A DNA stretch of 64,000 nucleotides from a virus, in the IMG/VR virus record IMGVR_UViG_3300025872_000053, positions 1 through 64,000 of that record, one strand, 5' to 3'. Shown piece by piece: positions 23,116 to 64,000 of the stretch; positions within the stretch are counted from its first letter, which is position 1, and every line of letters starts with the position of its first letter. A program made the position numbers and the translations under genes. Below the pieces are notes generated by a model, which searched no databases, was not told the DNA's origin, and was given only the letters and a program-made list of their open reading frames with translations.

Positions 23116-24273
23116 ATGGCTGATTTTTCATTAACTACGCTCTTCGTAGTTCCAGTAGGAAACTCTCTACCTAGCTCTGGTTCTACGCAAGACTTGACCG
23201 CAGGTCAATTTGGTATCTTTAGGAGTGATTACAGTGTTGCAAACGCTGGTAACATCGCTGCTAAACCATACTTCTATTTAGCTCAAGGTAGAACAAACAC
23301 ATATCTTCAAGGTTCAAAGCGTTCTGATAAGATCGCTGGTTGCGTTGATGGTAGCTGTAAATCTAACGTTACTGAGTGGTACAAAGTAAGTGGTTGTCCT
23401 CTTCCTGCTACCCAAGTAACAGATGTATCTGGTTGGAATGTACAGTGTGGTGATATCGTAACACTTACACTTCGTGCACACTCTTCTTACCTTGATACTT
23501 TGTATTTCAATGGTTTCACTCGTTCTGTAACAGTTCAAGCTCCTTGTTGCGAGTGTGGTGGTGACCCTTGTACTAATGTTGATGTACCTGCATTGATTGA
23601 TCAGTTCATCTATCAATTGACTCTTCAGGCTCCTGGTAACAACCCAGACAACATCAACTTCAACGATTTCTATCAATTCCAAAGAATTGGTAACGATCAA
23701 AATGCTATCCTCCGTATTTCTGGTAAGCCTCTTACCAAGTATGGTCAGCCTTGTGACGTTGCTGCATTCCCTTGGGAGTATGACAGAATGTGGTTCCGTA
23801 CTTTCGTGTACAGTGGACCAGCTACTACTGCTGACTTCATCGTAGCAGATGCTTGTAACATTGTTGCTGATGCTCAAGTTATTCAGCGTGCTTCTTATCC
23901 TTCAGGTACTTCTGATGAGATCAAGCAGCTCGAGAAGAACTTCTATAGCTATCAAGCAGGTTACTTGAAGCATCTTTACAGAATGGCAGGTTACAACGAG
24001 AACTTTGAGTCTTGGGTTTCTGACGGTACTACCTATGATACCTTCTACATCAAGTTCAACGAATATGACAAATCTGCTTATTCTTGGGGTGACTACATCA
24101 AGGAAGATAGCACTGTAATCATTGCTGCTCCTCAAGCTTTGAGTGCTGCAATTCAGGCTGTTCTTGAGGCTGGTCTTGGTCTTGTTGCTGATGATAATGC
24201 TTGTGTAAGCACTACATCTACAACTACCACTGTATGGCCTACAACTTCAAGCACTACCACTCTTGTTCCTTAA
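23116..24273 (+). CDS. structural protein with poly-Thr C-terminal tail ending ...TTTLVP (385 aa); possible auxiliary capsid/decoration or tube protein
   Basis: Own terminator downstream; Cys-rich middle; C-terminal STTSTTTTVWPTTSSTTTLVP. Confidence 0.5.
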   Translation: MADFSLTTLFVVPVGNSLPSSGSTQDLTAGQFGIFRSDYSVANAGNIAAKPYFYLAQGRTNTYLQGSKRSDKIAGCVDGSCKSNVTEWYKVSGCPLPATQVTDVSGWNVQCGDIVTLTLRAHSSYLDTLYFNGFTRSVTVQAPCCECGGDPCTNVDVPALIDQFIYQLTLQAPGNNPDNINFNDFYQFQRIGNDQNAILRISGKPLTKYGQPCDVAAFPWEYDRMWFRTFVYSGPATTADFIVADACNIVADAQVIQRASYPSGTSDEIKQLEKNFYSYQAGYLKHLYRMAGYNENFESWVSDGTTYDTFYIKFNEYDKSAYSWGDYIKEDSTVIIAAPQALSAAIQAVLEAGLGLVADDNACVSTTSTTTTVWPTTSSTTTLVP

Positions 24274-24302
24274 TAAGAGGTAGAAACAATATCATATAAC
24301 CT

Positions 24303-24350
24303 AAGCCAGAGGGTGAGAGGATCTTCTCAAATCCTCTGGCTTATTTATTT
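24303..24350 (+). terminator. Rho-independent terminator
   Basis: 10-bp stem aagccagagg/cctctggctt, loop 20 nt, followed by ATTTATTT. Confidence 0.6.
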
Positions 24351-24358
24351 AGAAGAAC

Positions 24359-24922
24359 ATGGCAGACTTGAAATTAGATTTTTTAGTAATTCCTACATAC
24401 AACGTACAAACGTTGGGTATTGCTGATGCATCAACTTACCCAGCAGCTCCTCCTGTTAGCTCTCCTACAATAGAGATAGATGTTCCAGGATTTGGTCTAG
24501 TCAGCCTTCCATTTAACATAAATGACTTCAACATTTACACTACTGCTTCATTAGGAATAACTTCAGTTGGTGATCCTCTGTTACCACTTCCTGATGGAGT
24601 TTATTATATTAAATACTCTGTTGCTCCTGCATATCAGAACTTTGTGCAGAAAACAATAATGCGTGTTGATCAACTTCAAGAGAAGTTTGATAGTGCATTC
24701 ATGAAGCTTGATATGATGGAATGTGATGCAGCTATTAGAAAACAACAGATGGTTGATCTAAACAGCATCTATTACTTCATACAAGGATCTATTGCTGCTG
24801 CAAATAATTGTGCTATTGATACAGCTAATAAACTGTACAATCAAGCAAATATGATGTTAAACCAATTCATAGCAAATAGGTGTAATTGCTATGGTAACAA
24901 TTATGTAAACAATTTCTATTAA
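24359..24922 (+). CDS. hypothetical structural protein (187 aa)
   Basis: ORF. Confidence 0.5.
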   Translation: MADLKLDFLVIPTYNVQTLGIADASTYPAAPPVSSPTIEIDVPGFGLVSLPFNINDFNIYTTASLGITSVGDPLLPLPDGVYYIKYSVAPAYQNFVQKTIMRVDQLQEKFDSAFMKLDMMECDAAIRKQQMVDLNSIYYFIQGSIAAANNCAIDTANKLYNQANMMLNQFIANRCNCYGNNYVNNFY

Positions 24923-24923
24923 T

Positions 24924-25067
24924 ATGGCAAACTGTAGAAACTGCGGTGTTAAAGTTGGATGTGGCTGTCAATTGATAAACGGTCTATGTTCAGCTTGCAA
25001 CAATGCTATTAAACAAGCTACTAAAAGAATAAAGAATGTTATATCCAAGGCTTACAAATTGCGTTGA
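24924..25067 (+). CDS. Cys-rich micro-protein (47 aa, MANCRNCGVKVGCGCQLINGLCSACNN...), not in ORF track
   Basis: 6 Cys in first 25 aa, style similar to CxxC N-termini of neighbouring fiber genes; overlaps start of 25036 ORF in another frame. Confidence 0.3.
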   Translation: MANCRNCGVKVGCGCQLINGLCSACNNAIKQATKRIKNVISKAYKLR

Positions 25068-25302
25068 TTGTTCTAGCGTTCCTGCATTGCTTGCAGATAT
25101 TGATTGCAAGCTTACAGAACTAGCTAAGAATGAATATAACAATATTGTGTTTCAATTAAACTGGCCTGTTCCAGGAACAGTGATTTGGGATCTTCTCAAC
25201 TACAAAAGAATACTTACTTACAAGTATTGTAGCCCAGAATATGCTGGATCATATTCCATAGAAAGAATAGCTAGTAGAGTTAAAATATTAATCAATAAAT
25301 AA
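25036..25302 (+). CDS. hypothetical Cys-containing protein (88 aa)
   Basis: ORF. Confidence 0.4.
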   Translation: MLYPRLTNCVDCSSVPALLADIDCKLTELAKNEYNNIVFQLNWPVPGTVIWDLLNYKRILTYKYCSPEYAGSYSIERIASRVKILINK

Positions 25303-25311
25303 ATTATACAA

Positions 25312-26439
25312 ATGTCTTGTTCAAACTGTTACAACGGATGCACTGAGATTGTCTCAGATAGGTGTGTGAGATATACAGGATTAGATGTACCTGCTCTAGG
25401 TATTCTATCAGGTGATTCTCTATCACTCGTAGAATCTTCTTTAATAGAGTTTCTTACATCCACTTTAAATGGTGTAGGAATCAAACCTATTGTTGATCCT
25501 CTAATCATCTGTAATCTTGTTCAACAATATCTTCCTGATTGTGGTGAGTTTACATTGAATGACTACATTACAGCTCTCATCAAAGCTGCTTGTGATCTGC
25601 AGGTACAAGTTGATTTACTTGCTGCTGACATCACAACATTGAATGCTGATTATGATGTAGACTGTTTAGTAGGTGTTACGCCTTCTTCAGACACACATGC
25701 TGTGTTGCAAGCAGTTATTACAAAGCTTTGTGACATAGATGTAGAACTTGCAGCTCTTGCTTTAGATGTTGATACCAACTATGTAAAGCTTGCAGATCTT
25801 AATACATTAATTGCTGCTTACCTTGCTAGTGTATCTCCTGATGGTACAAAGTATTACACCAAGATGGTTCCTTATACAGTGGTTGAATACTACGGACCTC
25901 TTACAGGAAACTTTGATGTAACAGGTGCAGGACTAGGTGACTGGGAGAAAATCTACCTCTGTAATGGTAACAATGGAACACCTGACAAACGTGGTAGAGC
26001 TGCTGTGGGTGCTATTGTTGGTGTAGGTGGTGGAGCTCTTGATCCAGTAGTGGATCCAGCAACCCCTACAAACCCTAACTATGCTCTCAATGGAACAGCT
26101 GGTGCAAACACTGTGTCTTTGAACACTTCTCAACTTCCTTCACATACACATGGTGTCACTGTAATTGATGCTGGACACACCCACTTTACATTAGCAGATG
26201 CTGTTGATACAACTGGTGTTCTTCCTACAAATACAACAAGTATTGCTAAAGAAAGCTCATTTGGTACATCAGGAGAAGAATATGCAATGCGTTCATCTGC
26301 TTTGAGTGGAGCAAGTTTAGGTTTAACAAGTGCCTCTGGTTCAAATATTAGCGTTTCAATTGCTAACACTGGAAGTGGAAGCCCACATAGCAACATTCAA
26401 CCTGTTCTTGCTTGCTATTATATTATGTACATTCCTTAA
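25312..26439 (+). CDS. tail fiber protein with C-terminal phage tail-collar domain (375 aa)
   Basis: 'GDWEKIYLCNGNNGTPDKRGRAAVG' (LPDLRGR-like) and 'LPSHTHGVTVIDAGHTHF' (LPxHxH) collar-domain signatures; Cys-rich N-terminal anchor domain. Confidence 0.7.
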   Translation: MSCSNCYNGCTEIVSDRCVRYTGLDVPALGILSGDSLSLVESSLIEFLTSTLNGVGIKPIVDPLIICNLVQQYLPDCGEFTLNDYITALIKAACDLQVQVDLLAADITTLNADYDVDCLVGVTPSSDTHAVLQAVITKLCDIDVELAALALDVDTNYVKLADLNTLIAAYLASVSPDGTKYYTKMVPYTVVEYYGPLTGNFDVTGAGLGDWEKIYLCNGNNGTPDKRGRAAVGAIVGVGGGALDPVVDPATPTNPNYALNGTAGANTVSLNTSQLPSHTHGVTVIDAGHTHFTLADAVDTTGVLPTNTTSIAKESSFGTSGEEYAMRSSALSGASLGLTSASGSNISVSIANTGSGSPHSNIQPVLACYYIMYIP

Positions 26440-26457
26440 CAAATAAACTCTAAATAA

Positions 26458-26787
26458 ATGGCTTGTACTCCAGGTTCACCATGTAATCCATTGGTTGTCA
26501 ACACTGTATATCCAAAGAAGTGTAACAACGGATGGTTTGCTGGCTATCCAATATCAACAAATTTAATATGTTATAATGGTCCAAATCTGCCAAATACAGG
26601 TGTCAATACTAATGATAACCTGAATCTGGTTTTAGAAAAGATTGACGCAGAGTTGGATCCAGTAACCTTAGCAGAAACATTATTACAAACAATTGCAACA
26701 AATGTTTCCCTTCTTACAGCTTTCTGTGAGATAGCTAACCTTTGTGCCTCTTACACAACCACAACTACCACCACGGTAGCACCATAA
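26458..26787 (+). CDS. small fiber-anchor-domain protein ending in TTTTTTTVAP (109 aa)
   Basis: N-terminal domain paralogous to N-terminus of gene 61809.. ('TGVNTNDNLNLVLEKIDAELDP' vs 'TGINTNDNLQTALEKIDAKFAD'). Confidence 0.55.
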   Translation: MACTPGSPCNPLVVNTVYPKKCNNGWFAGYPISTNLICYNGPNLPNTGVNTNDNLNLVLEKIDAELDPVTLAETLLQTIATNVSLLTAFCEIANLCASYTTTTTTTVAP

Positions 26788-26797
26788 ATTATCAAAA

Positions 26798-26855
26798 ACC
26801 CTGTTTTGTTGGTTTTACAGGGTATCTCCTGGGGTTTCTACCCTGGGAGTTTTTG
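26798..26855 (+). terminator. tandem hairpins / intrinsic terminator
   Basis: accctgt...acagggt stem (26798..26823) then ctcctgggg-tttcta-ccctgggag (26826..26849) followed by TTTTTgTTT. Confidence 0.6.
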
Positions 26856-26907
26856 TTTAAATTATAACCAATTTGGTTATTACAGATAATCTATTTGGTT
26901 AAATAAA

Positions 26908-26940
26908 TTTGGAGAATTTCAAAAATTGTTCGTACCTTTA
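26908..26940 (+). promoter_or_regulatory. candidate promoter for 26968.. transcription unit
   Basis: TTTG (26908..26911) - 21 nt - TAccTTTa (one mismatch to TAnnTTTG). Confidence 0.3.
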
Positions 26941-26967
26941 CTGTAATTTTAACTAAAATCTAGTCCA

Positions 26968-28218
26968 ATGGTAGGGAACCAGCATCTCTTAGAACAGTTG
27001 CAACAAATGCTAAACTGGAAGAAAAGTAAAAAGTTTTATGCAGAAAAACTAGGGATTACAGAAGATGAGGTGGATGCGTTATTAAAAGAAATTAGAAAGA
27101 GTGAGGTGGTAAGAAATGAGGCAGAGGTTTCACATTACATAGATCAGCTTGAAGAAGCTGTTGTAAGATTTGAGGAAGATTTAATCAAGGGTACAGGTGA
27201 GATAGTGTTCAATAGTCCAGAAGAAATTCGTTCTCTGGAGGATCTTATTGAAAAGTGTAAGATTGATACAAGTAAGTGGGAAATAACTAAATATGTCCAG
27301 AACTACTGGGGAAATGGTTCAAATCCACATTGGCAAGTAAAGGCTTGGCTTGGTAAGAAAACTGAAGGTCAGGTGTTTCAAAATGCTTTTGTAGATTTCT
27401 TGAATGAATACAAACCATGTTCTCCAGATATCGTTGCTCCTAAATACATCACTGGGAAAAGCGAAGCTTGTCTTGTGATTAACAAACAAGATTCACATCT
27501 CAACAAGTATGATGTTTATGGTGATAACAACATAAACGATAGATTTGGTGGTATACTTGAGAAGGTGGAAATAATTTTGAACCAAGCTACTCTGTCAAAT
27601 AATCTCGAAAAACTAATTTACATCATTGGATCGGATGAGTTTAATAGTGAGTTCACAAACACTACAACAAAAGGAACTCCACAAACTAACATCCTACCAT
27701 ATCATGAATCCTTCCAAAGGATCTGTGAATATGAAGTTCAAATGATCTCCCTCCTGTTACAGAATGCAAATAACGTAGATGTTGTATATGTAGCAGGAAA
27801 CCATGATGAGTATGTAGGATGGCATCTAATAACATGGTTGCAAACCTACTTTAGAAACACTGATAGGTTAACATTTGATTGTTCTCCTAGATATAGAAAA
27901 TACATAAGCTTTGGAGAAAGTGCGTTAATGTTCAATCATGGAGATGCAATAAAGCCAGCAAAGCTAGCTGCAATCTTTCCAATGGAATATAGAGATGAAT
28001 GGTCTTATCATACCAACTTCTACATATTCACAGGAGATAAACATCATGAGTTGAGTCAGGATTTTAATGGAATCAAGTTTTATCAAATTCCAGCTTTTTC
28101 TAGTGCTAAAAGTTCATGGGATGAAAAGAATGGATACACGTGTGCGAAGGCTGAAGTTACTGCATTCCTAATAGAAGAAGATAACGGAATGACAAACATA
28201 TTCAAACAATATTTATAA
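26968..28218 (+). CDS. calcineurin-like metallophosphoesterase-domain protein (416 aa)
   Basis: 'QDSHL' (DxH), 'YGDNNIND', 'VAGNHDEY' (GNHD/E), 'FNHGD', 'FTGDKHHE' in canonical order. Confidence 0.6.
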   Translation: MVGNQHLLEQLQQMLNWKKSKKFYAEKLGITEDEVDALLKEIRKSEVVRNEAEVSHYIDQLEEAVVRFEEDLIKGTGEIVFNSPEEIRSLEDLIEKCKIDTSKWEITKYVQNYWGNGSNPHWQVKAWLGKKTEGQVFQNAFVDFLNEYKPCSPDIVAPKYITGKSEACLVINKQDSHLNKYDVYGDNNINDRFGGILEKVEIILNQATLSNNLEKLIYIIGSDEFNSEFTNTTTKGTPQTNILPYHESFQRICEYEVQMISLLLQNANNVDVVYVAGNHDEYVGWHLITWLQTYFRNTDRLTFDCSPRYRKYISFGESALMFNHGDAIKPAKLAAIFPMEYRDEWSYHTNFYIFTGDKHHELSQDFNGIKFYQIPAFSSAKSSWDEKNGYTCAKAEVTAFLIEEDNGMTNIFKQYL

Positions 28219-28943
28219 TGTCAACATTAAGAAAATTAGTTTCAGATGTACGCTCAATGCATAAGTTGTTGTCAACAGACAACCTTATCACTGATAGAGC
28301 TATTGCATCTGAAGTTAAGAATAATTCTCTTTTACTAATCAAAAGAGAAACAAACCTCAGGAAGCTTTGGGCTACTGATACTTTGTTTACCACCATTCCT
28401 TGTTTAGAAATGGTGCAAGTTCCTATTTCTGAATGTTGTGACTTTGCTGATCCTTGTACTGTCTCAAGGAGCAAGTATAAACTCCCTCGTATAGCAGAAG
28501 GTAACTATCAATACATCATCCAAGGTGTATATTCTATCAATGCTATGAGTGGAAGAGGAACTAAGTTTAAAGAAATCACAGTGAACAGATATGTTAACTT
28601 GATTAAGCTTCCAATTGTAAAAAGAGAAACCTACTACTGGATAATGAATGGATATCTATATGTTAGCAATCCACTTCTTCAGACAGTAAGAATTTCTGCT
28701 TTGTTTGAGGAAGATGTTCCTAATGAGATTATGTTTCCAGAATGTGATTGTGGAAAAGAATATACAAACGAAGAATGGTGCAAGAATCCATTGGATAAAC
28801 CATATGCTGTTCCTGGGTACTTAGAGAAGCAAGTTCTAGAACTTACTTCACAAAAATTGTTAGCAACATATTTCAGAATTAAAACAGATATGACCCAGGA
28901 TGGCGTAGATGGTCAAGCACCAAATGCTAAACCAACTAGCTAA
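28218..28943 (+). CDS. hypothetical tail-region protein (241 aa)
   Basis: ORF, overlapping start with upstream stop. Confidence 0.5.
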   Translation: MSTLRKLVSDVRSMHKLLSTDNLITDRAIASEVKNNSLLLIKRETNLRKLWATDTLFTTIPCLEMVQVPISECCDFADPCTVSRSKYKLPRIAEGNYQYIIQGVYSINAMSGRGTKFKEITVNRYVNLIKLPIVKRETYYWIMNGYLYVSNPLLQTVRISALFEEDVPNEIMFPECDCGKEYTNEEWCKNPLDKPYAVPGYLEKQVLELTSQKLLATYFRIKTDMTQDGVDGQAPNAKPTS

Positions 28944-29419
28944 TGAGAGTAAAAATAGACTGGAGAAGTTCAAGTAGAGAAAACTATAACAACTTCTGTA
29001 AGAAACATCCTGAGGTAAAGATTTCATTTGATGAGTGGAAAAACATTGTTTACACATTCAACGAGTCTTTCAAAAATTACATATTAGAAACTGGAGAGCG
29101 AGCAAAGCTCCCTTTTGGATTTGGTGAGTTTTCTATCAACAAAAAGAAGAGAAGAAAGATGAAAGGTGTTGATGGAAAAGAGTTTGTCAATCTTCCTATA
29201 GACTGGCAAAGAACTAAAGAGAAAGGAAAGGTTATTTACAACTTCAACTATCATACAGAAGGTTACTTTTTTGGATGGGTTTGGTTTAAAGAAACAGCTA
29301 GACTCAAACATACAGATCTTTGGTATTTCAAACCATCAAGAACTACCTCCAGACTTCTATCGCACTACATAAAAACCAACGACAAATATCAACATATTTA
29401 TCGTGAATGGAAAAAATAA
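28943..29419 (+). CDS. hypothetical protein (158 aa)
   Basis: ORF. Confidence 0.5.
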   Translation: MRVKIDWRSSSRENYNNFCKKHPEVKISFDEWKNIVYTFNESFKNYILETGERAKLPFGFGEFSINKKKRRKMKGVDGKEFVNLPIDWQRTKEKGKVIYNFNYHTEGYFFGWVWFKETARLKHTDLWYFKPSRTTSRLLSHYIKTNDKYQHIYREWKK

Positions 29420-29424
29420 TATAG

Positions 29425-30399
29425 ATGTCAAATTACTATAAGTATAATTTTATCAGCCCTGAACCAGTCTACTCTACTGTTAAGGAGGAACTTAAATCCT
29501 ACTTTGATACAGGAGCAGTGGATGACTTGATGTTCCCTACTTATCTAGACAAATGTCTTAGAAAGTTAGGAAGAGCAACTTATGTAATTAGCGAACAAAT
29601 CTTGTACATTGAAGACTTTGAAGCTAGGCTTCCAGACAACTTCTATGCTGCAAGAGAAGCGTGGATGTGTACAGAGATTCCTCAGGATCCTTACCAAACA
29701 CCAAACTCTTTTTATTCTCAAGCTGTTGACCAAACCACTATTCAGGTTAGTCCTGTTATTTCTGGAGGTCAACCTTGTACTAACTTAAACTGTACAAACC
29801 CTGGTTGTGATGGAACATGTATGCCTGAACTTATTCAAGCTGTGTTCAAAACAAATCAGCAAATGACAAGATCTTTCCAAAGATCATATTTGTTGAAACC
29901 AGGAACAATATCTGCAAGAGGTAATTGTGATGTTAGTTATACAGATGCTTGGGAATTTGTAAGTGCCCCTGCACCATTACACGAATTCACTCCTGGATCT
30001 GCAGGATATGATTCATTCGACATAAGAGGTAATAAATTTGTTACCAATTTTAGAAATGGTGTTGTACATCTTATATTCTATGCTACAGCATATGATGGTA
30101 ATGATAACCAAATGATTCCAGATAACTTTCGTATCAGGGAATATATTGAAGCATTCATTAAATATAAAGTTTTTGAAACTCTGGCAAATCAAATAAATGA
30201 TGAAACGTTTGATCAAATCCAAAAGAAGTTAGGTTACTATAAAAACCTTTCTGACGAAGCTTTCATAATGGCAGACATCGAGATCAAGAAACAAGATGCC
30301 TGGACTAAGCAACGCAGAATTAAGAATGACCTTAATAGGTTTAATATGTATGAACTTCCAAACAGAGTAGGTAGATATGGCTGGAGAAGGAACAACTAA
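29425..30399 (+). CDS. hypothetical tail-region protein (324 aa)
   Basis: ORF; 23-nt overlap with next gene. Confidence 0.5.
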   Translation: MSNYYKYNFISPEPVYSTVKEELKSYFDTGAVDDLMFPTYLDKCLRKLGRATYVISEQILYIEDFEARLPDNFYAAREAWMCTEIPQDPYQTPNSFYSQAVDQTTIQVSPVISGGQPCTNLNCTNPGCDGTCMPELIQAVFKTNQQMTRSFQRSYLLKPGTISARGNCDVSYTDAWEFVSAPAPLHEFTPGSAGYDSFDIRGNKFVTNFRNGVVHLIFYATAYDGNDNQMIPDNFRIREYIEAFIKYKVFETLANQINDETFDQIQKKLGYYKNLSDEAFIMADIEIKKQDAWTKQRRIKNDLNRFNMYELPNRVGRYGWRRNN

Positions 30400-33300
30400 T
30401 ATAATTCAGGAGAGAACTGCTGCTCAAACAGGGTTGAACCTTGACAGAACTGTTAATCAGATTCCTAAAGGTCAATTAACCTATGCATTGAATGCTGCTG
30501 TTGAAAACTTTGACTCAAACTCTGTTAACTATCAGAATGAGCCAGGTAACGAGCTATGTCTAAACTTTCCTGAAGACTATCATCTTATAGGCACACACTT
30601 CATTAATGAACAGGCTAAACATATATTCTTCCTTACTAACCCTTCTACAGGAGATAGTGAGATTGGTTATATGGATAATAATGATTGTGTCTACCGTAAA
30701 TATATAAGTGGTAAATGTCTTAACTTTAATATTGACTATCCGATACACAAAGCTGTACATAAGATTACAAACTGTACAACAGAAATATATTGGACAGATG
30801 GTTTGAATCCACGTAGGTTCCTTGACCTAAACAACCTTCCTTACATCACTTCTCCAGGACTCACAGGTTGTGATCCTATTGTTACACCTGAACTTGATTG
30901 TAACAAACTCAAGGTTCAACCAAATTTTAATATTCCTCAAATAAACATAACTGGTGTAAACAATACAGGAAACCTAGTAGCAGGTACCTACCAGTTTGCT
31001 ATTCAATATAGTGATGCTTCAGGAGATCCCTACACATCCTATTACTCAGTGACTAACCCCACTTCTATAGGAAATGTTGATATTACCACTCCTGATTTCA
31101 ATTATTCTGTAGGACAGGCTATTGAATTAGCAATTAACAATCTAGATGTCACTGGATATTTCCAGTATTTTAATATAGCTGTAATAAAGACAGTTAATGC
31201 AATCTCCTCAGTGGAGCTTGTTGGAACATACTATATTGACCAAGCATCTAGAGATATAACATACACTGGTCAGAATCAAACTCAAATAAGACTTACACTT
31301 AATGATGTATTTGAGAAGTTTCCATATTATGATATTGCACAAGATCTTACATCTGTTCAGGATGTATTAGTTTGGGATAATCTTACATCAATAGATAGAG
31401 TTAACTATCAGAAGATAGCTAACGGCATAACATTAAACTGGCAGACTTATAAGCTTCCTGCAGATGAAAACTATGCAGACAATGCAAACTCTGCTAATCT
31501 AAGAGGTTATCTTCGTGATGAGGTGTATGCTTTTGAAATAGTGTTTCTACTAGGAAACGGTAAACAAACTGATGGTTTTCATATTCCTGGTAGAGCAAAG
31601 AACTTTAATGAGTTTTCTCAACCAGATGTTCCAAATACCAATCCTGATTTTGTTGGGGATGGTACAAGTGCTCCATATTGGAAGATATATAACACAGCTT
31701 CTGTATTAGGAGTTGGTGCAGGAGAACCAATTGGTAATGCAACACCATATCAATATGGTGAATTTGCATATTGGGAATCAACAGAAACATATCCTTGTAA
31801 TGAAGAAGTGTGGGGAGACTTAGCTAATCAACCAATTAGACATCATAAGTTTCCTGATGTATTAGTTAGTCCAATATTTGAAAGTGGTACACCTACAATT
31901 GAATATGATGGAACATACAGTGGATTAACTATTGAAAATAGATCAGTGTTTCCAATAGGTGTTAGATTTGATGCTAATCAAATAAAACAACTAATCGAAT
32001 TCTCTGGTCTTACAGATGAACAAAAGAGCAACATTGTTGGGTTCAAGATTGTAAGAGGAAACAGAAACACAAATAAATCTGTCGTAGCAAAAGGTATATT
32101 GAGAAATGTGGGTGAGTATGAAAGAGAAGGAAATACATTCTACTTTCCTAACTATCCATATAATGACCTTAGGGTTGACCCTTTCCTTTTGAAAGAAAAC
32201 AATGCATACGATGCTGTATGTAGGGAGTATAAAATCACTGTAACTAATGTTGCTGGTACAACAATTAGCTACTATAATTGTGATACAAATGAATTAAGTA
32301 CAGAGGTGGTAGCTTCTGCAACCACTGTTAATCTTTGTTCTACAACTTTCCCTACTCTATCAGCTCCTTCTGATGGTACAATAGAAGCTACAGACTATGG
32401 TGTTTGGAGACTTTGTTCTAAAGTTGCTGGTTTATTCACAGGAAATACATTTGAATATCTTCCTCCAGATCAAGCTGCACCAACTACAGCTTTTGTACCT
32501 TCTGGTATAACTTCTCCATTTTGCGTAGTTGTAAACTCTGTAACCAAACCAATATTTGTAAGTGGAACTGGAAGGTTTGAAATTACACTTCTACAAGAAA
32601 TAAAGAATGGTGTTTTAAATTGCACAGTTAGTGATGATAACTTGGATGCATTCAACAACACCAACTCTCCATACAGATATGTATTCAACTCACCAGACAC
32701 ATCGTTTGGTAGTCCTTTCTTAGGAAATGTTTTGAAACTTGAGAATGCAATCTATGGAAGAGGTAATGCACATTTTGTACAAGTTAGTAAGAATGCAAAT
32801 TATAAACTCATCACTATAGAAGCTCAAGAGGATGCTCTTGCATCTAGTGAAGAGATAGCAGATACTACAACTCCTTTTGATGTACCAGCAATGTTTGCTG
32901 CATATCAATCCTATCTGACTATTTATATCAATGGTATAACTAGAAAGAACTATGCTAAGTCTTACAACTCTATAGCAGAGTATGACTATTCTATAGCAAT
33001 TAATAATGATTTAGGTGTTAAGCAAAGACAAATTGATATAGCTCAATACTTAATTCCTGGTGTTCAGAATGTTGGAGATAACTTAAACATTAATAACTTT
33101 AACAGAGAATCCTCTGTATACATAAAGACAATAGACACTAGAGATGGAAACTCTGTCTCAAGCTTACCTTATCCTGATAATACACCAAACGCATTAATAG
33201 GAGGAACCACTCCTGTTATTCAGGATAAATCAAGATATACATTATCTGAAATAGGAAACTGTCTAAATCCAGAAAAAGAATTTGAAATATCCACTATAAC

Positions 33301-35494
33301 TTATTATGGATCAATTAAGAATATATTTGACAACCAATGGGGTCAGATTTATTCTTATGAAACAATTGACACTGGTTGTCAAGTGATATTCAATTCTGTA
33401 ACATCTAGAATCATTACAGCTTTTGGAGGAGATACATTTATTAACAAGTTCTCTTTCAAAACAAAACTTCCATTCTTTATAGATAATAGAGTGGGTGCTC
33501 CTGATGATAGTGATGTGTTCTATGATGAGATAGGTAATGTAGCCTATCCAAAATATTGGCACTCAGCTAGATCAATTCTTTATAACTACACAACAGTCTT
33601 AACTTCACCTGCTGTCACATTAAAAAATATCATATCAATCAAAGCTCACAACTTTGATTGTCCAAATGCTCAGATAGAAGGATCTCCTGGAAGAACTTAT
33701 TATGATGGAAGCTTCTACCTATTTGCTTATGGTATTCCTACATTCTATTGTGAATCAAATGTTAACGTAGATTTACGCCAAGCATTTAATAATAGAGAAG
33801 GTGATTTCTTCCCACACGTGAGTACAGGTATTCCTGATCAGTGGGTACAAGAAAGTAATGTTCCTATTGCGTTTGACAATACGTACTATTATAACCCAAC
33901 ATATTCTAAACAGAATACAGAGAATTCGTTCACACATCTTCCTGTAAACTGGGACAACAACCAATGTTATACAAACTTCCCATTCAGGGCTATCTATTCT
34001 GATAGACAGCAGAGCTTTGTTGATAATGAAGTGAACAACTGGTTGATATACAGACCTATAAGCTTCTTTGATTTCCCACAGAACTATGGAAAGCTTACAA
34101 GCTTAGACGGTATTCAGAATAGAGCAATCCTTGCTAGGTTTGAGAATAAATCATTGTTATACAATACGTTGTTGACAATTGATACAAGCAATCCTCAAGC
34201 AGCTTATGTAGGAAATGACTCACTATTTAGAAGTGCACCTCCAATAGACTTTGCAGAAACAGACTTGGGATATGTAGGAAGTCAGCACAAGATGCTTCTA
34301 AAAATACCACAAGGACAGGTTACTGTAGATGCTAAGAGAGGTCAGGTGTTCTTGATTGCTGGTAATCAAGCTACAGATTTGTCAGGCTTTGGTTCAGGAT
34401 TGAATAGGTTCTTTACAGATCATTTAGCATTTGAAATACTTAGATATTTCCCTAATGTTCCTGTAGACAATCATTTCAATGCTATAGGTTTACATGGTGT
34501 ATACGATAGTAAGTTTGATAGAGTTATTATCACCAAGCTTGATTATATTCCTTTGAGAAATGACATCAAGTATGATGCTACAACTAACGAGTTTTATTTT
34601 GAGACTGAGTATGTAATGCCTAGTGAGACTTTGTATTACAGTGTGGTTCGTACTGTTGTTGATTTGACAGATACTAACTATTTCTGCAACAAGTCTTGGT
34701 CACTATCATTCAACTTCAATACAATGAGTTGGATAAGTTTCCATAGCTATATTCCTAACTTCTACATTGCTGAAAATAACTTCTTCTATTCTGGATTGAA
34801 TGGTAGCTGTGATGTAGAAGCACTTGCTGCTGAGATTGTACCAACAACTACAACAACTACAACACTTGCTCCAACAACAACCACTACAACTACATTACCG
34901 CCTCCTAATTGTGCTCTAGCAGGAACAATAGAATTGTTGAACTGTGAACTAGTTGGTACAGCAGAACGTATCAGTCCTTTGAATTGTGACTTGGCAGGAA
35001 CTGCAGAAGCAATATATCCTACTACTACCACAACAACTACTACAGTGTTAGATTGTGCATTAGGTGGAACAGCTGAGGCTATTGCTCCAGAACCTACAAC
35101 TACCACTACCACTACAACGTTACCTCCTGAGTTTTTCTTTTTAGCATTTACTCCTGAGGGAACTGCTCAAAGATGTTCTGATTTAGGTGAGGGTTGTACA
35201 AGTTGTGGACCTTACTATGGAGCACCTGGTTCTACTTTATCTGAAGGACTTGCTTTGTATCAAGATGAAACATTGACAACTCCTGCAGCAAATGGTTATT
35301 ATAATGACTGCTGTAATTATTGGGTTTGTACTGGAGGCGTGTTTGGTAGTGGAGGAACTTGCGATTGTTATTTTGAAGGAACTGCTGAGAAGATAGAACC
35401 TACAACAACAACCACAACTACAACAGTTCTTGATTGTGATCTGGCTGGTAATGCTGAACAAACTAACCCTCCACCACCTCCTCCTACACCTTAA
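30377..35494 (+). CDS. large tail/host-recognition protein (1705 aa) with C-terminal poly-Thr linker array and Cys-rich terminal module
   Basis: C-terminus: four T7-8 linkers alternating with 'LDC(A/D)L(A/G)G(T/N)AE' peptides, 9-Cys module, ends PPPPPPTP. Confidence 0.55.
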   Translation: MAGEGTTNIIQERTAAQTGLNLDRTVNQIPKGQLTYALNAAVENFDSNSVNYQNEPGNELCLNFPEDYHLIGTHFINEQAKHIFFLTNPSTGDSEIGYMDNNDCVYRKYISGKCLNFNIDYPIHKAVHKITNCTTEIYWTDGLNPRRFLDLNNLPYITSPGLTGCDPIVTPELDCNKLKVQPNFNIPQINITGVNNTGNLVAGTYQFAIQYSDASGDPYTSYYSVTNPTSIGNVDITTPDFNYSVGQAIELAINNLDVTGYFQYFNIAVIKTVNAISSVELVGTYYIDQASRDITYTGQNQTQIRLTLNDVFEKFPYYDIAQDLTSVQDVLVWDNLTSIDRVNYQKIANGITLNWQTYKLPADENYADNANSANLRGYLRDEVYAFEIVFLLGNGKQTDGFHIPGRAKNFNEFSQPDVPNTNPDFVGDGTSAPYWKIYNTASVLGVGAGEPIGNATPYQYGEFAYWESTETYPCNEEVWGDLANQPIRHHKFPDVLVSPIFESGTPTIEYDGTYSGLTIENRSVFPIGVRFDANQIKQLIEFSGLTDEQKSNIVGFKIVRGNRNTNKSVVAKGILRNVGEYEREGNTFYFPNYPYNDLRVDPFLLKENNAYDAVCREYKITVTNVAGTTISYYNCDTNELSTEVVASATTVNLCSTTFPTLSAPSDGTIEATDYGVWRLCSKVAGLFTGNTFEYLPPDQAAPTTAFVPSGITSPFCVVVNSVTKPIFVSGTGRFEITLLQEIKNGVLNCTVSDDNLDAFNNTNSPYRYVFNSPDTSFGSPFLGNVLKLENAIYGRGNAHFVQVSKNANYKLITIEAQEDALASSEEIADTTTPFDVPAMFAAYQSYLTIYINGITRKNYAKSYNSIAEYDYSIAINNDLGVKQRQIDIAQYLIPGVQNVGDNLNINNFNRESSVYIKTIDTRDGNSVSSLPYPDNTPNALIGGTTPVIQDKSRYTLSEIGNCLNPEKEFEISTITYYGSIKNIFDNQWGQIYSYETIDTGCQVIFNSVTSRIITAFGGDTFINKFSFKTKLPFFIDNRVGAPDDSDVFYDEIGNVAYPKYWHSARSILYNYTTVLTSPAVTLKNIISIKAHNFDCPNAQIEGSPGRTYYDGSFYLFAYGIPTFYCESNVNVDLRQAFNNREGDFFPHVSTGIPDQWVQESNVPIAFDNTYYYNPTYSKQNTENSFTHLPVNWDNNQCYTNFPFRAIYSDRQQSFVDNEVNNWLIYRPISFFDFPQNYGKLTSLDGIQNRAILARFENKSLLYNTLLTIDTSNPQAAYVGNDSLFRSAPPIDFAETDLGYVGSQHKMLLKIPQGQVTVDAKRGQVFLIAGNQATDLSGFGSGLNRFFTDHLAFEILRYFPNVPVDNHFNAIGLHGVYDSKFDRVIITKLDYIPLRNDIKYDATTNEFYFETEYVMPSETLYYSVVRTVVDLTDTNYFCNKSWSLSFNFNTMSWISFHSYIPNFYIAENNFFYSGLNGSCDVEALAAEIVPTTTTTTTLAPTTTTTTTLPPPNCALAGTIELLNCELVGTAERISPLNCDLAGTAEAIYPTTTTTTTTVLDCALGGTAEAIAPEPTTTTTTTTLPPEFFFLAFTPEGTAQRCSDLGEGCTSCGPYYGAPGSTLSEGLALYQDETLTTPAANGYYNDCCNYWVCTGGVFGSGGTCDCYFEGTAEKIEPTTTTTTTTVLDCDLAGNAEQTNPPPPPPTP

Positions 35495-35523: not shown

Positions 35524-36027
35524 ATGGCACAAACAGTATTGATAACACTAACAACTGCAGGAGCTGATACAGGACCCTTTGACTTGTATTCAGATGCTGA
35601 TAGTTATGTTACACCATTTGAAAATAATGTACCGAAAGCATCATTAGTTTCAGGATATACATCAACAGTAGTTCCTGATCTTGCTACAATTATTAGAGTG
35701 CAATCTGATGGTACTTGTACTAATTACATTGATCTAACTATTGTTACAACCACTACTACAACCACAACAGCAGCACCTGTTTATGCATTCTCAGGATCTG
35801 GATATAGCAATGTAGATGAAAATGCTGCTTGTTCTGATGCAATCTTGAATAACAGAACACTAACTTCTGACTGTGCAGTGATTGCTCCAGGTTGTGTAAT
35901 ATTTACAAATCCTTTGGGAACTAATCCGCTTCTTGGTAACTCCTATGTATTGATAGGTGGTGCAGGAAACTTTGATTTAGATCCTCTAACTGGTGTTGTA
36001 TTAGGTGCTTCAGCAATTCAATGTTAA
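35524..36027 (+). CDS. small virion protein with internal T8 linker (167 aa)
   Basis: N-terminus paralogous to next gene (MAQTVLITLTTAG.. vs MAKTIVIRLTKSG..); 'TTTTTTTTAAP'. Confidence 0.5.
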   Translation: MAQTVLITLTTAGADTGPFDLYSDADSYVTPFENNVPKASLVSGYTSTVVPDLATIIRVQSDGTCTNYIDLTIVTTTTTTTTAAPVYAFSGSGYSNVDENAACSDAILNNRTLTSDCAVIAPGCVIFTNPLGTNPLLGNSYVLIGGAGNFDLDPLTGVVLGASAIQC

Positions 36028-36033
36028 TAATAA

Positions 36034-36906
36034 ATGGCTAAAACAATTGTCATAAGGCTAACTAAGTCTGGCAGCAGAACAAGTACATTCTCCATTTCTG
36101 ACGATTTGGGGAATGTGCTTGCATCTGATGTTCCAAAGGAGGAACTTATCACTGGGTTAGCACTCAGTGTTGCAGATTCTGTGAAGGTGGTTATATTGTC
36201 TTCTACAGGAATAAACTGTTGTAATAAACGATGGAACATTCCTGTAACAACAATTACCACACCAGAACTTGCTGCTATTAACTATCAACAAGTTAATACA
36301 GCATCTATTTGGACACATCTGAAGAATCCTGTGATATACAATACGTTCTATGGATGTATCAACCCATACATCATAGAATATCCTTTTGCATATCAATACT
36401 ATGATGAGATTCTTCAGAATGTAAAAGACTATACAAAAGCCTACAAGTATCTACCTGATCAGTTTGGTGTGTTTGATGATAGTAGAAAGGTAGAAACAGA
36501 CAATCAGTATTTCAACAAAGCTATTCTTTATAACGGTCAGCAGTGTTCTGGTATATTGGAACTTGTTCCAAAACCAATGAATAACCTAAAGGAATACATG
36601 AAATATCCTATATATAATGCTGAGAGTAAGACAATTACATTCACTAAGAGTGATAACTTCTATCAGTATAATACATTCTGGTCGTTAGTTAAAAATAAAT
36701 CCATACCTTTGTTTACTGTTAGTTGTGAATCACTATCAATAGACAAAATTGTAAACCAGTCTAATATGGACTACGGAAAGAGATCCTTTAAGAAGGAACC
36801 TCTAAGAGCAAAAGAACTGAAGGTGAGACATATATTAGACAACAAGTCTGACGCACATTTGGTAAGTCAGTTTATCTTTACACCTGCTCAAATCTCTTAC
36901 AAATAA
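36034..36906 (+). CDS. hypothetical virion protein (290 aa)
   Basis: N-terminal domain paralogous to 35524 gene. Confidence 0.5.
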   Translation: MAKTIVIRLTKSGSRTSTFSISDDLGNVLASDVPKEELITGLALSVADSVKVVILSSTGINCCNKRWNIPVTTITTPELAAINYQQVNTASIWTHLKNPVIYNTFYGCINPYIIEYPFAYQYYDEILQNVKDYTKAYKYLPDQFGVFDDSRKVETDNQYFNKAILYNGQQCSGILELVPKPMNNLKEYMKYPIYNAESKTITFTKSDNFYQYNTFWSLVKNKSIPLFTVSCESLSIDKIVNQSNMDYGKRSFKKEPLRAKELKVRHILDNKSDAHLVSQFIFTPAQISYK

Positions 36907-61582: not shown

Positions 61583-61798
61583 ATGCGTATTGCTACAATT
61601 TGCCCAACGTGTGCCACACACATTAACTCTGTGTGTGTGATTTATGATGGTGAGTATCTTGCTAATTTAGATGTAGCTCCAGGAGATACCCTTGAGGATA
61701 TCCTTCTGAAGATTAACAATAGTTGTGCTTGCACTACTACTACAACTACTAGCACTAGTACTTCAACCACCACTACAACTACTACTATAGCACCATAA
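61583..61798 (+). CDS. small fiber-anchor-domain protein ending TTTTTTTIAP (71 aa)
   Basis: CxxC N-terminus + 'PGDTLEDILLKINN' like other anchor-domain paralogs; poly-Thr + IAP C-terminus. Confidence 0.5.
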   Translation: MRIATICPTCATHINSVCVIYDGEYLANLDVAPGDTLEDILLKINNSCACTTTTTTSTSTSTTTTTTTIAP

Positions 61799-61808
61799 CT
61801 TAATATAC

Positions 61809-64000
61809 ATGAACGTTACTTGTGGAGCCACCCCCTGTCCAGTTATACTGAATAGCACCTGCGTATTTTACGAAGGTGCTAATCTCATTTATACAGGCAT
61901 CAATACTAATGATAATCTTCAAACTGCTCTAGAAAAGATAGATGCTAAGTTTGCAGATGCATCAATAGGATACGTGTTTCAAAACGGTATTATTCAAACA
62001 GCACCTGGTCAACCTGTAAAGTTGGGAGGTTCTTTGAATCAAAACACCGTAATTAACAGTGCTGGTTATACATTTGAACTTACAGGTACTATTGAATCAT
62101 CTGCATTCATTACCTCTGGAGGAACATCAAGCCAGTTTGTTAAGGGAGATGGTTCTTTAGATTCTACATCCTATCAGCCTGCTGGTAACTATATCACTGG
62201 TCTCACTGGTGATGGTACAGCATCTGGTCCAGGTAACGTTCCTTTTACATTAGCTACAGTTAACTCAAACCCAGGCACTTATGGATCATCTACATTGATT
62301 CCTGTAGTGACTGTGAATGGTAAGGGATTGGTAACTAATATTACCACCACAGCTGTAAATATTCCTTCTGGCTCAATCATTTTACAAGGAGATGTAACAG
62401 GTGTTGGAACCACAGGTGTTCCTCTTACAACTACACTTGCTACAGTGAATGCCAATGTGTATGGTACAGACACTCCTCTTAAATTTGCTGTAAATGGTAA
62501 GGGATTAGTTACATCAGCTTCTCCTCTCACTGCTTTAGATATAATAGGCATTCTTGGTTATACACCAGTTCCTGATAGTAGAACTATCACGATCAATGGT
62601 GTAACCTATGATTTGTCAGCTAATAGAACTTGGTCTGTAGGAACAGTCACAAGTGTAGATCTTCAAATGCCTTCAGCATTTGCTGTATCTGGTAATCCAA
62701 TCACCTCATCTGGAACTTTAGTAGTAACTGGTACAGGTACTATAAATCAATATGTTAGAGGTGATGGTTCATTAGGAAACTTCCCATCAGGTATTGGTTC
62801 TTCAGGTACCTCAGGTGCTGGAGGTACATCTGGTACTTCTGGTCAAGGTGGTACATCTGGTACTAGCGGTGCAACAGGTGTGTCTGGTACAAGTGGTACT
62901 TCAGGTGGCACAGGTAGTAGTGGTACTTCTGGTATAGGAGGTTCCTCTGGTACAAGTGGACAAGCTGGGTCATCAGGTACATCAGGTGTTTCTGGTGGTT
63001 CTGGTAGCTCAGGATCTTCTGGATCCTCTGGAATAAGCGGAACTTCTGGAACAAGTGGTGGCACAGGAACCAGTGGAACATCTGGTAACAATGGCTCTTC
63101 TGGTACTTCTGGAGGAACAGGAACTAGTGGTACCTCAGGTGACTCTGGTACATCAGGCTTATCTGGTACTAGCGGAACATCAGGTGGAACTGGTACATCA
63201 GGTACAAGCGGAGGTACAGGAACCTCAGGTACTAGTGGAGCTACTGGCTCTAGTGGTACATCAGGTAATAGTGGAACTTCTGGAGACTCTGGTACAAGTG
63301 GAAGTTCTGGTGTATCTGGAACTAGCGGTGATAGTGGGTCTAGTGGTACATCTGGTGCAACAGGTTCTTCTGGAACAAGTGGTATTTCTGGTACTAGTGG
63401 CACGTCTGGTGCTGTTGGTAGCAGTGGTACATCTGGTGAAAGTGGAACTAGTGGTAACAGTGGGACAAGTGGCACAAGTGGTATAAATGGAACTTCTGGT
63501 AATAACGGCACTAGTGGTACTAGTGGAGGTACAGGTACAAGTGGTACTTCTGGAGACAGTGGTTCATCAGGTGTGAATGGAACTAGTGGTACGTCAGGAG
63601 ATAGTGGTAGCTCTGGCACCAGTGGGTCTTCTGGACTTTCTGGTACTAGTGGTCAATCCTCTACAAGCGGTACAAGTGGAAACAGTGGTTCTTCTGGCAC
63701 TTCTGGTTTGTCAGGTAGTTCTGGAACAGCAGGTGAATCTGGTACAAGTGGTAATAATGGCTCCTCTGGAAACAGTGGTACGTCAGGTACAAGTGGTTTG
63801 AATGGTGATGATGGTACATCTGGTACCAGTGGTATTAGTGGTACATCAGGTACCAATGGACAAAATGGTACAAGCGGTACATCTGGCTTGTCAGGTACAA
63901 GTGGAAATAACGGTAGCTCTGGTTCTTCTGGAAACAGTGGAACAAGTGGCACCTCAGGTATAAATGGTGATGATGGAACTTCAGGAACTTCTGGCGTTAG
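61809..64000 (+). CDS. tail fiber with phage-tail-fibre repeats and long Pro-free collagen-like (Gly-X-Y) domain; 3' partial (runs off window), absent from ORF track
   Basis: Open frame from ATG 61809 to window end; N-term anchor domain; two 'T(L)ATVN..GTY....VTVNGKGLVT' repeats (lambda Stf-type 'AGTYTKVTVNAKGLVT'); from ~62791 continuous GTS-GTS-GxG triplets. Confidence 0.7.
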   Translation, partial: MNVTCGATPCPVILNSTCVFYEGANLIYTGINTNDNLQTALEKIDAKFADASIGYVFQNGIIQTAPGQPVKLGGSLNQNTVINSAGYTFELTGTIESSAFITSGGTSSQFVKGDGSLDSTSYQPAGNYITGLTGDGTASGPGNVPFTLATVNSNPGTYGSSTLIPVVTVNGKGLVTNITTTAVNIPSGSIILQGDVTGVGTTGVPLTTTLATVNANVYGTDTPLKFAVNGKGLVTSASPLTALDIIGILGYTPVPDSRTITINGVTYDLSANRTWSVGTVTSVDLQMPSAFAVSGNPITSSGTLVVTGTGTINQYVRGDGSLGNFPSGIGSSGTSGAGGTSGTSGQGGTSGTSGATGVSGTSGTSGGTGSSGTSGIGGSSGTSGQAGSSGTSGVSGGSGSSGSSGSSGISGTSGTSGGTGTSGTSGNNGSSGTSGGTGTSGTSGDSGTSGLSGTSGTSGGTGTSGTSGGTGTSGTSGATGSSGTSGNSGTSGDSGTSGSSGVSGTSGDSGSSGTSGATGSSGTSGISGTSGTSGAVGSSGTSGESGTSGNSGTSGTSGINGTSGNNGTSGTSGGTGTSGTSGDSGSSGVNGTSGTSGDSGSSGTSGSSGLSGTSGQSSTSGTSGNSGSSGTSGLSGSSGTAGESGTSGNNGSSGNSGTSGTSGLNGDDGTSGTSGISGTSGTNGQNGTSGTSGLSGTSGNNGSSGSSGNSGTSGTSGINGDDGTSGTSGV
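62791..64000 (+). repeat. nucleotide-level triplet/nonamer repeat encoding (Gly-Thr-Ser)n collagen-like tract
   Basis: ggtacWtcWggt-type units repeated for >1.2 kb; every third residue Gly. Confidence 0.8.

Follow-up and report, generated by a model that had tools for sequence, protein, structure and literature searches.

The 64,000 nucleotides analysed here (positions 1 to 64,000 of the IMG/VR virus record IMGVR_UViG_3300025872_000053; we call this whole stretch the window) come from a distant crAss-like phage, uncultured, and raise the question of why several of its virion protein genes encode runs of seven or eight threonines, closed by a hydrophobic residue, a variable residue and proline. 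Some of these runs stand at the very C-terminus, as tags, and others lie within the protein. An initial annotation had offered three roles for them, namely O-glycosylation acceptor, docking strand for fibre assembly or flexible spacer, and had regarded the runs as prone to changes in length; all of the sequences that it quoted were found where it had placed them. We observed that the runs belong to a recurrent unit that joins exchangeable modules in relatives of this phage. The tags are probably stalks for the attachment of sugars, since in the closest relatives the genes of protein-glycosylating enzymes adjoin the tag genes.

The threonine runs belong to a conserved protein unit

Nine runs of at least seven threonines were present in the window, in five genes of the coding strand, whereas about 8e-5 would be expected from composition. 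Comparison with relatives defined a unit of 10-11 residues, (T/S)7-8-hydrophobic-x-Pro (the comparative sets, here and below, were the best 80 homologues or loci, with each locus taken to at most 10 kb on either side). The residues closing the units are a hydrophobic residue, then A, P, E or T, and then P; the closing tripeptide differs widely (VAP, AAP, IAP, LP, LI, GP, TP). The 80 related loci held 176 runs of five or more threonines, all on the coding strand, with length modes of 7 (81 runs) and 8 (36 runs). We counted 127 such runs in 0.96 Mb of this clade, as against 0 in 0.93 Mb from 78 fibre loci of unrelated phages. These control loci were retrieved through the C-terminal chaperone-like domain of the window's giant fibre, a domain that is common to many unrelated phages. 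The exact ending T7-(V/I)AP-stop was found in 41 IMG/VR stretches, on many different N-terminal parts, some of the proteins being only 45-60 aa long and made up of a short anchor peptide and a unit alone.

The runs are written in mixed ACA, ACT, ACC and ACG codons and, because the codons are mixed, they are not clean simple-sequence repeats. Their length is fixed and the codons are free to vary, which points to selection at the protein level. The runs also do not behave as a simple-sequence contingency locus, since their codons are mixed and their length is invariant, and only the count of whole 30-33-bp units differs. The suspicion that these repeats are prone to slippage was not supported as far as run length is concerned (invariant over 80 homologues). 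The number of whole units does differ between alleles that are 93-95% identical. The downstream modules also differ among near-identical relatives.

The same N-terminal domains were found to be followed by one to four units and then by a stop codon or by unrelated modules. On this comparative evidence, the units are best described as the string of a beads-on-a-string design, spacing exchangeable modules, and what was called a C-terminal tag is a terminal unit. The terminal unit is then the end of the string without a protein module, kept by selection and not the result of a recent truncation. The features of a linker were all seen, that is, an S/T run punctuated by Pro, a position between independently exchanged modules, and predicted disorder (of which only the tail of the 385-aa protein described below was modelled). 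The spacer role proposed at the outset was thus borne out by the independently swapped modules that the units join in relatives. The conservation of the tags was also confirmed when C-termini were compared across relatives, as terminal units are kept, and their length and pattern are invariant in 80 capsid-protein homologues.

We also searched 185,579 bacterial genomes for T7-(V/I/M)AP-T7, and obtained 114 stretches. The 80 of these that were inspected were mostly linkers in large proteins of Acidimicrobiia, other Actinomycetota, Streptococcus and Granulicatella. Since secreted proteins of Actinomycetota and Firmicutes often have the T7-8-VAP wording, the unit is a known kind of linker. Long T7-8-VAP arrays were concentrated in metagenome-assembled genomes (MAGs) of freshwater Acidimicrobiia/Ilumatobacteraceae and in oral Streptococcus/Granulicatella proteins (L290-L369). 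In a recurrent Streptococcus/Granulicatella protein the array comes straight after a conserved ...RSDMQIDYVRVWQP segment.

The units are carried by proteins predicted to face outward

The first C-terminal tag belongs to a 385-aa protein (23116..24273, + strand) that we describe as a capsid auxiliary protein homologue. It had no Pfam match, and a PDB sequence search with this protein and with the 109-aa protein described below gave nothing useful. The AlphaFold2 (AF2) model of the 385-aa protein (pLDDT 77.6, pTM 0.74) had a single significant PDB match in Foldseek, which was also the top one, 7qof_a (E 3.8e-9, prob 1.0, TM 0.50/0.56). This is a 333-aa chain of the crAss001 capsid and equals gp36 by length. 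When the 385-aa family was compared by hhalign, the C-terminal match to gp36 was weak but colinear, and there was no match to crAss001 gp35. In crAss001, gp36 forms the outer capsid layer, with nine copies per asymmetric unit (PMC10172136); by analogy, we infer an outer-layer position for the 385-aa protein.

The C-terminal tail of this protein, CVSTTSTTTTVWPTTSSTTTLVP (24202..24270, + strand), consists of two S/T units, each ending hydrophobic-x-Pro (TTSTTTT-VWP, then TTSSTTT-LVP, with the stop at 24273). The TTTLVP ending that had been quoted is therefore present, but the tail is not pure poly-threonine. In 80 homologues (80-99% identity) the length and pattern of the tail were constant, the preceding 20 residues being variable, and three to four synonymous codons were used per Thr position with the amino acid invariant. 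The Trp, the Leu and the final Pro were also invariant, the tail terminating in L-I/V-P. S/T-rich tails of ~20 aa that end hydrophobic-x-P recurred in homologues of 35-80% identity, with some lineages lacking them. Tail residues 367-385 had an AF2 pLDDT of ~30. We also observed that L162 (Logan SRR31200892_11832), which has a 71% identical capsid auxiliary protein without the tail, had no S/T run of six or more on the coding strand in the 21 kb of structural genes sampled, and that its fibre homologues have their domains joined without T units. This one tag-free lineage suggests that the trait may depend on a shared factor, or be switched genome-wide.

Three small proteins also carry the unit. 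A 109-aa protein (26458..26787, + strand) consists of a Cys-rich fibre-anchor domain and one terminal unit, T7-VAP (26755..26784, + strand), followed by the stop codon. A 71-aa protein (61583..61798, + strand) has a fibre-anchor domain and the terminal tag T6-STSTS-T7-IAP (61733-61795). The N-terminal anchor domain is common to these two proteins and to the giant fibre that starts at 61809 (blastp 2e-9 and 3.5e-4, the 109-aa protein against the fibre being 2e-9). The carriers, which the initial annotation took to be unrelated, are thus only partly so. The third protein, of 167 aa (35524..36027, + strand), is built of a 73-aa N-domain, a T8-AAP linker (35746-35778) and a Cys-closed C-domain, and its N-domain also occurs in the next gene, 36034-36906 (E 4.8e-5). 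Searches of Pfam and PHROGs with the tag-bearing small proteins gave nothing.

In the homologues of the 109-aa protein, one to four units come after the same N-domain, and some of these homologues also have a Cys-closed distal domain. Stub alleles persist across N-domains that are 68-98% identical, with the Thr codons differing, and the 3' flanks of stub and domain-bearing alleles are homologous from the stop codon on. In the window this flank (26788-26860, 3' of the 109-aa gene) contains two hairpins, the first being AAAACCCTG...CAGGGT and the second a terminator-like stem (26826-26849) with a T tail, and both are kept right after the stop codon in all alleles, whatever precedes the stop. Homologues of the 167-aa protein keep the N-domain and the linker, and then have either a stop or unrelated C-domains, while, in the case of the 71-aa protein, relatives (L030, L049, L058) have a linker of its kind that leads into a Cys-rich domain. 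On the contigs of relatives we also found mini-proteins of 45-80 aa that consist of an anchor peptide and one to three T units only. They fall into two families by their anchor, IGWS..NLLWQISKQLE and KPKVGNW..ECC (L124-L161, L484-L565), and paralogues with the same anchors bear real distal domains. The IGWS...NLLWQISKQLE anchor protein had no match in tblastn against isolated phages.

The remaining carrier, of 1705 aa (30377..35494, + strand), is a tail muzzle protein homologue (Pfam crAss_MUZ PF25731, E 3e-34; virion structural protein in PHROG), and muzzle homologues are present in Cellulophaga and Flavobacterium phages. The crAss001 muzzle protein is a hexamer at the tail tip (PMC10172136). 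The Thr runs of the 1705-aa protein are confined to its last 220 aa, and a modular, beads-on-a-string C-terminal extension (34844..35491, + strand) follows a conserved FYIAENN...EIVP boundary. The extension, all on the + strand, opens with two tandem units, T7-LAP and T7-LPP (34844..34903), and three tandem single-Cys peptides, NCALAGTIE, NCELVGTAE and NCDLAGTAE (34910..35008). These are followed by a T8 run and VLD (35021..35044), the CxLxGTAE peptide DCALGGTAE (35054..35077), a T8 run and LPP (35096..35119), a small Cys-rich globular module between linkers (35120..35365), and a last segment (35366..35458) made of a CxFxGTAE peptide, a T8 run that continues into VLD (35402..35425) and the final DCDLAGNAE peptide. 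The C-terminus itself is NPPPPPPTP. The extension had been said to hold four T7-8 runs alternating with CxLxGxAE peptides; there are five runs (34844, 34874, 35021, 35096 and 35402), and the peptides are indeed present, six of them by our count and of CxLxG(T/N)AE type.

The module at 35120..35365 matched no Pfam family; its likeness to the Cys-closed distal modules of relatives was judged by eye only. Among 80 relatives, the sequence past the boundary ranged from none (29 aa from FYIAENN to the stop, L431) to more than 1000 aa, and contained T/S linkers, CxLxGTA peptides and assorted small Cys-rich domains, with tandem arrays of 2-10 or more units. The muzzle extension is thus hypervariable. 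In many relatives the motif C-x-(L/I)-x-G-(T/E)-A-(E/V) occurred in 1-5 tandem copies, both where the extension begins and at its extreme end (L404-L483). No family was found for the CxLxGTA peptides; given the hexameric muzzle, our guess is that they could be inter-chain disulfide or bundling elements. Judged by homology, the capsid auxiliary protein, the small fibre-like proteins and the distal muzzle extension are all predicted to face outward.

Glycosyltransferase genes adjoin the tag genes in relatives

A Pfam scan of the window genes gave no recognisable glycosyltransferase (GT). On the contigs of relatives, glycosylation genes come after the giant fibre. The contig with an identical 71-aa gene runs on, via a 2849-aa fibre, into a GT-A-like gene and then a GT4/methyltransferase gene. 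The contig with a 97%-identical capsid protein has GT-A-like, GT4, FkbM methyltransferase, sulfotransferase, APS kinase and nucleotidyltransferase-like genes and, on the opposite strand, a gene for a 1138-aa methyltransferase/GT4/GT9-like fusion. The phage glycan-modification region was located at L089:10001-18698 and L484:4235-5881 (contig IMGVR_UViG_3300005805_000058), which is ~6-25 kb past the window's right end in the equivalent genome. Within it, the GT-A-like and GT4 genes lie at L089:10001-11555, the fusion gene at L089:15282-18698 and the gene of the 338-aa protein described below at L484:4683-5699. The sulfotransferase of this region showed weak NoeE similarity, and the presence of a sulfotransferase and an APS kinase in a phage hints at a sulfated glycan. 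The 218-aa GT-A-like protein hit Pfam Glycos_transf_2 below threshold, and its profile had no meaningful match in PDB; it can be called GT-A-like only weakly.

The C-terminal domain of the 1138-aa fusion is of the TibC/AAH type (TIGR04414, 274.9 bits with a cut-off of 200), and this domain matched TibC (PDB 4rap_A) with E 2.8e-50 in phmmer. The functional residues of TibC include Asp110 and the ADP-heptose-binding Arg286, Trp305, Thr226 and Lys230 (PMC4358343). In the phage domain we found the catalytic Asp110 and the four iron-finger Cys conserved, along with Thr226, Lys230 and Trp305, with Arg286 changed to Thr and Pro300 changed to Ser. A possible further GT-A-like segment with DSD motifs was seen in the fusion by eye only. 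In IMG/VR we counted at least 556 relatives of its GT4 domain, which are thus as common as those of the capsid protein (at least 593). Only a handful of these loci could be confirmed to have the TibC-type domain itself, and the GT-A/GT4/sulfotransferase block was found on 45 IMG/VR contigs only. In tblastn searches of isolated phages with the GT4 protein and the fusion, only distant or partial matches were seen.

Past the lysis cassette, the contig with the 97%-identical capsid protein encodes a 236-aa fibre, a 50-aa stub (an anchor plus T8VAPE), a 338-aa protein and two mini-proteins of 71-72 aa tailed with T units. The 338-aa protein had 2629 homologues and no sequence-level family match. 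Its AF2 model (pLDDT 92) had 133 PDB matches at E <= 0.001 in Foldseek, the top 50 being all of GT6/GT8/GT24 type, and a DxD motif (D108-x-D110) was invariant in the homologues. As judged from the model, the 338-aa protein is a GT-A fold glycosyltransferase. Of the 62 loci with this gene, 35 had open reading frames with tags within 1.5 kb on each side of it, and a further 18 had them on a single side; where the homologue was 37% identical or less, tag-bearing frames were mostly absent. The same arrangement of the 338-aa gene with tag genes was seen on an independent NCBI contig.

The phage and the other genes of the window

From 13 kb on, the + strand of the window is a structural module (PHROGs, Pfam), with the terminase (13097), the portal (15133), the Crass-type major capsid protein (19660), the ring proteins (28218 and 29425) and four giant proteins (36906-61500), all on this strand. 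An SPFH/Band 7 domain protein (17718-18248, Pfam E 4e-24) lies between the portal gene and the gene of a 418-aa protein that precedes the capsid gene. A 416-aa protein (26968-28218) with a PHROG match to 'DNA repair exonuclease' (E 2e-47) is encoded in the midst of the structural module, with the fibre genes on one side and the ring-protein genes on the other.

The capsid region had no near-identity DNA match among isolated phages, and the nearest isolates at the protein level were Leptolyngbya phage Lbo-JY46 and Cellulophaga phages phi17:2 and phi4:1. In metagenomes the family is very common, with more than 3600 homologues of the 385-aa protein on contigs of up to ~110-120 kb. The host is probably Gram-negative. 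Phage-like, low-GC contigs with T7-8-VAP were binned as Bacteroidia (L291, L312), Sediminibacterium (L345, a 112-kb contig) and Chthoniobacter (L352); the binning with Bacteroidia/Sediminibacterium MAGs is a weak hint of the host.

The giant fibre gene begins at 61809 and runs off the right end of the window (61809..64000, + strand), its product being 2849 aa on the matching contig (L086:10227-18776). Behind its Cys-rich N-terminal anchor domain, the fibre is without a T7 unit and has ~1500 aa of GTS/GSS collagen-like repeats, then dozens of NTAVG repeats, which by eye resemble adhesin-head repeats, and then the chaperone-like domain. The rise in GC to 0.45 at 62-64 kb is due to the giant fibre repeats. 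The four giant proteins contain 2 Cys in 8164 aa, and no Thr run; by gene order and size only, they would be the counterparts of the ejected cargo proteins and the putative RNA-polymerase subunit of crAss001. There is 1 Cys in the capsid protein and 0 in the 418-aa protein (18367-19623), and 5-33 Cys in each of the auxiliary capsid protein, the fibres and the muzzle protein. The split between tag carriers and giant proteins fits an outside/inside division, and Cys may be scarce where proteins must unfold on being ejected through the tail.

Discussion

We consider it probable that the stalk units are O-glycosylated by enzymes of the phage itself, and we infer that the tags are the acceptors and that a glycan is present on them. 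The phage glycosyltransferases would put an O-glycan on the Thr hydroxyls in the cytoplasm, before or during assembly. These enzymes would be the GT-A encoded between the tag mini-protein genes, and the fusion of methyltransferase, GT4 and TibC-type protein O-heptosyltransferase; this sub-lineage would add its further GT, methyltransferase, sulfotransferase and APS-kinase genes. A bare tag would then display a glycan in place of a protein domain, and the virion would wear a mucin-like brush. Candidate acceptors of the TibC-type domain are the T units or the repeats of the giant fibre. More tentatively, T7-8-hydrophobic-x-Pro could be a dedicated tag throughout a large and widespread crAss-like family, loaded by phage enzymes with a methylated, possibly sulfated, glycan to give a mucin-like coat. 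Were the copy number the same as in crAss001, there would be up to 540 capsid tails; the coat would extend to the fibres and the tail tip, and the minimal 45-aa proteins (an anchor plus a tag) would be fibres with sugar as the working end. What is new here is the context, that is, tags on virion proteins beside phage glycosyltransferase genes, since the linker itself was already known.

Several points weigh against glycosylation of the units. The links between enzymes and tags are gene adjacency and co-occurrence in one phage family, equivalent to about a single evolutionary event, and the enzyme genes are all outside the window. A few kb away, with the glycosylation genes in between, lies the giant fibre, a more conventional acceptor for a TibC-type enzyme with its NTAVG repeats and ~1500 aa of GTS repeats. 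The sugar-binding Arg286 of TibC is Thr in the phage domain. The 45 contigs with the GT block do not include several genomes that seem complete and have T-rich muzzle extensions. Microcystis phage Mel-JY01, taken as an independent case of a TibC-like domain implying tags, was negative, as it has such a domain and no S/T run of six or more in its first 50 kb (structural genes included). In the capsid-protein tail, the invariant Trp and the L-I/V-P ending look more like parts of a contact than of a free, glycosylated tail. Finally, T7-8-VAP is ordinary in bacterial secreted proteins, so spacing needs no modification.

It is possible, if doubtful, that the units are unmodified hydrophilic spacers, kept extended and unaggregated by a Pro every 10-11 residues, which hold binding modules off the virion. 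Terminal units would then be short bristles or harmless leftovers, and the glycosyltransferases would act on the giant fibre, on host envelope glycans or on DNA. Linker behaviour is seen directly in the relatives, and linkers with identical wording are found in secreted proteins of Acidimicrobiia, other Actinomycetota, Streptococcus and Granulicatella. The giant fibre could plausibly be the acceptor instead, unrelated phages also have GT4 homologues, and Mel-JY01 combines a TibC-like domain with an absence of tags. However, terminal units are under purifying selection as protein, with their length fixed; whole genes made of an anchor and units only are hard to justify if eight threonines are idle; and tag genes bracket the GT-A gene in most loci. 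That the units serve in docking or assembly is improbable. The Thr run would be a beta-strand whose hydrophobic-x-Pro plugs a pocket of the neighbour, stapling capsid auxiliary proteins together or fixing fibres. Thr favours beta structure, and homologues without an S/T run still end hydrophobic-x-Pro (...PLIP, ...PIIP, ...PIVP, ...PLTP); the invariant Trp, Leu and final Pro of the capsid-protein tail are also in keeping with docking, and bear on that one protein. Yet the unit also occurs internally and in tandem arrays of 2-10 or more, which is unexpected for a docking strand, the closing tripeptide is freely variable, and the AF2 model gives the tail no structure (it is a monomer model, blind to inter-chain contacts).

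We regard it as very improbable that the ACN repeats act at the DNA level, as recombination or slippage hot spots for fibre diversity with the peptide as a by-product. Conserved linker repeats are known to promote domain exchange in receptor-binding genes of other phages, and here module boundaries fall at the units, whose number differs between 93-95%-identical alleles. Against this, the codons are mixed and differ between orthologous runs, which makes for low DNA identity, run length is fixed and not polymorphic, and terminal units are conserved with nothing downstream to exchange. Modification by the host's general Bacteroidota O-glycosylation system, the route first suggested for glycosylation of the tags, hardly seems credible. 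It would accord with the muzzle homologues of Cellulophaga/Flavobacterium phages, and with the few phage-like contigs binned with Bacteroidia and Sediminibacterium MAGs. That system acts on noncytoplasmic proteins at D(S/T)(A/I/L/V/M/T), the glycan being first flipped to the periplasm (PMC8550257, PMC12871550). This motif touches no S/T run of the window's tag proteins, and the isolate closest by capsid protein infects a cyanobacterium. The compartment would also be wrong, as virions of tailed phages assemble in the cytoplasm. The proposal of O-glycosylation thus fails in its Bacteroidota form, and finds circumstantial support in the phage enzymes encoded on the closest relatives' contigs.

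In mycobacteriophages, the acceptors of glycosylation are reportedly C-terminal Ser/Thr-rich extensions. The mycobacteriophages Che8, Corndog and Myrna modify capsid and tail proteins (tail-tube proteins included) with glycosyltransferases of their own (PMC12363180), and provide the precedent for the glycosylated stalks proposed here, where GT genes likewise adjoin Ser/Thr-rich virion genes. The present system differs in being known from genes alone, in a crAss-like phage, and in having enzymes of TibC type, a GT-A of GT8-like fold, GT4 and a sulfotransferase. The phage TibC-type domain passes the NCBIfam equivalog cut-off for the BAHT family (TibC/AAH autotransporter O-heptosyltransferases) with catalytic and iron-finger residues kept. 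Unlike that family, it is phage-encoded, fused to methyltransferase and GT4 domains and without an autotransporter, and has Thr for Arg286 and Ser for Pro300. The Ser/Thr/Pro-rich linkers of bacterial extracellular proteins (including polyserine, and the Pro-Thr boxes of carbohydrate-active enzymes) resemble the phage units in their identical wording, their place between modules and their variable copy number. In contrast to them, the phage carriers are virion proteins, whose synthesis and assembly take place in the cytoplasm; their runs keep closely to a length of 7-8, and the units are also found as conserved C-terminal ends and as the sole exposed part of 45-80-aa proteins. In general layout the 109-, 71- and 167-aa proteins are like the crAss001 head fibres gp21 and gp29, which bind the capsid by a short N-terminal part and have a small domain at the distal end (PMC10172136), but they have no sequence similarity to these (E > 0.05), and gp21, gp29 and gp36 of crAss001 have no S/T units.

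If the tags are unmodified, the finding is an ordinary one, the Thr/Pro linker idiom of secreted proteins having been borrowed for modular fibres, and the comparative data still map the sites at which fibre and muzzle modules are exchanged. If glycosylation of the stalks is true, the TibC family of protein glycosyltransferases would have a role in phages, and glyco-engineering might gain an O-glycosylation tag that is very short and transferable. It would also bear on the ways in which these phages adhere to surfaces, escape proteases and are recognised. If the tags do carry a glycan, virion glycosylation would extend from a few mycobacteriophages to an abundant environmental family related to crAssphage.

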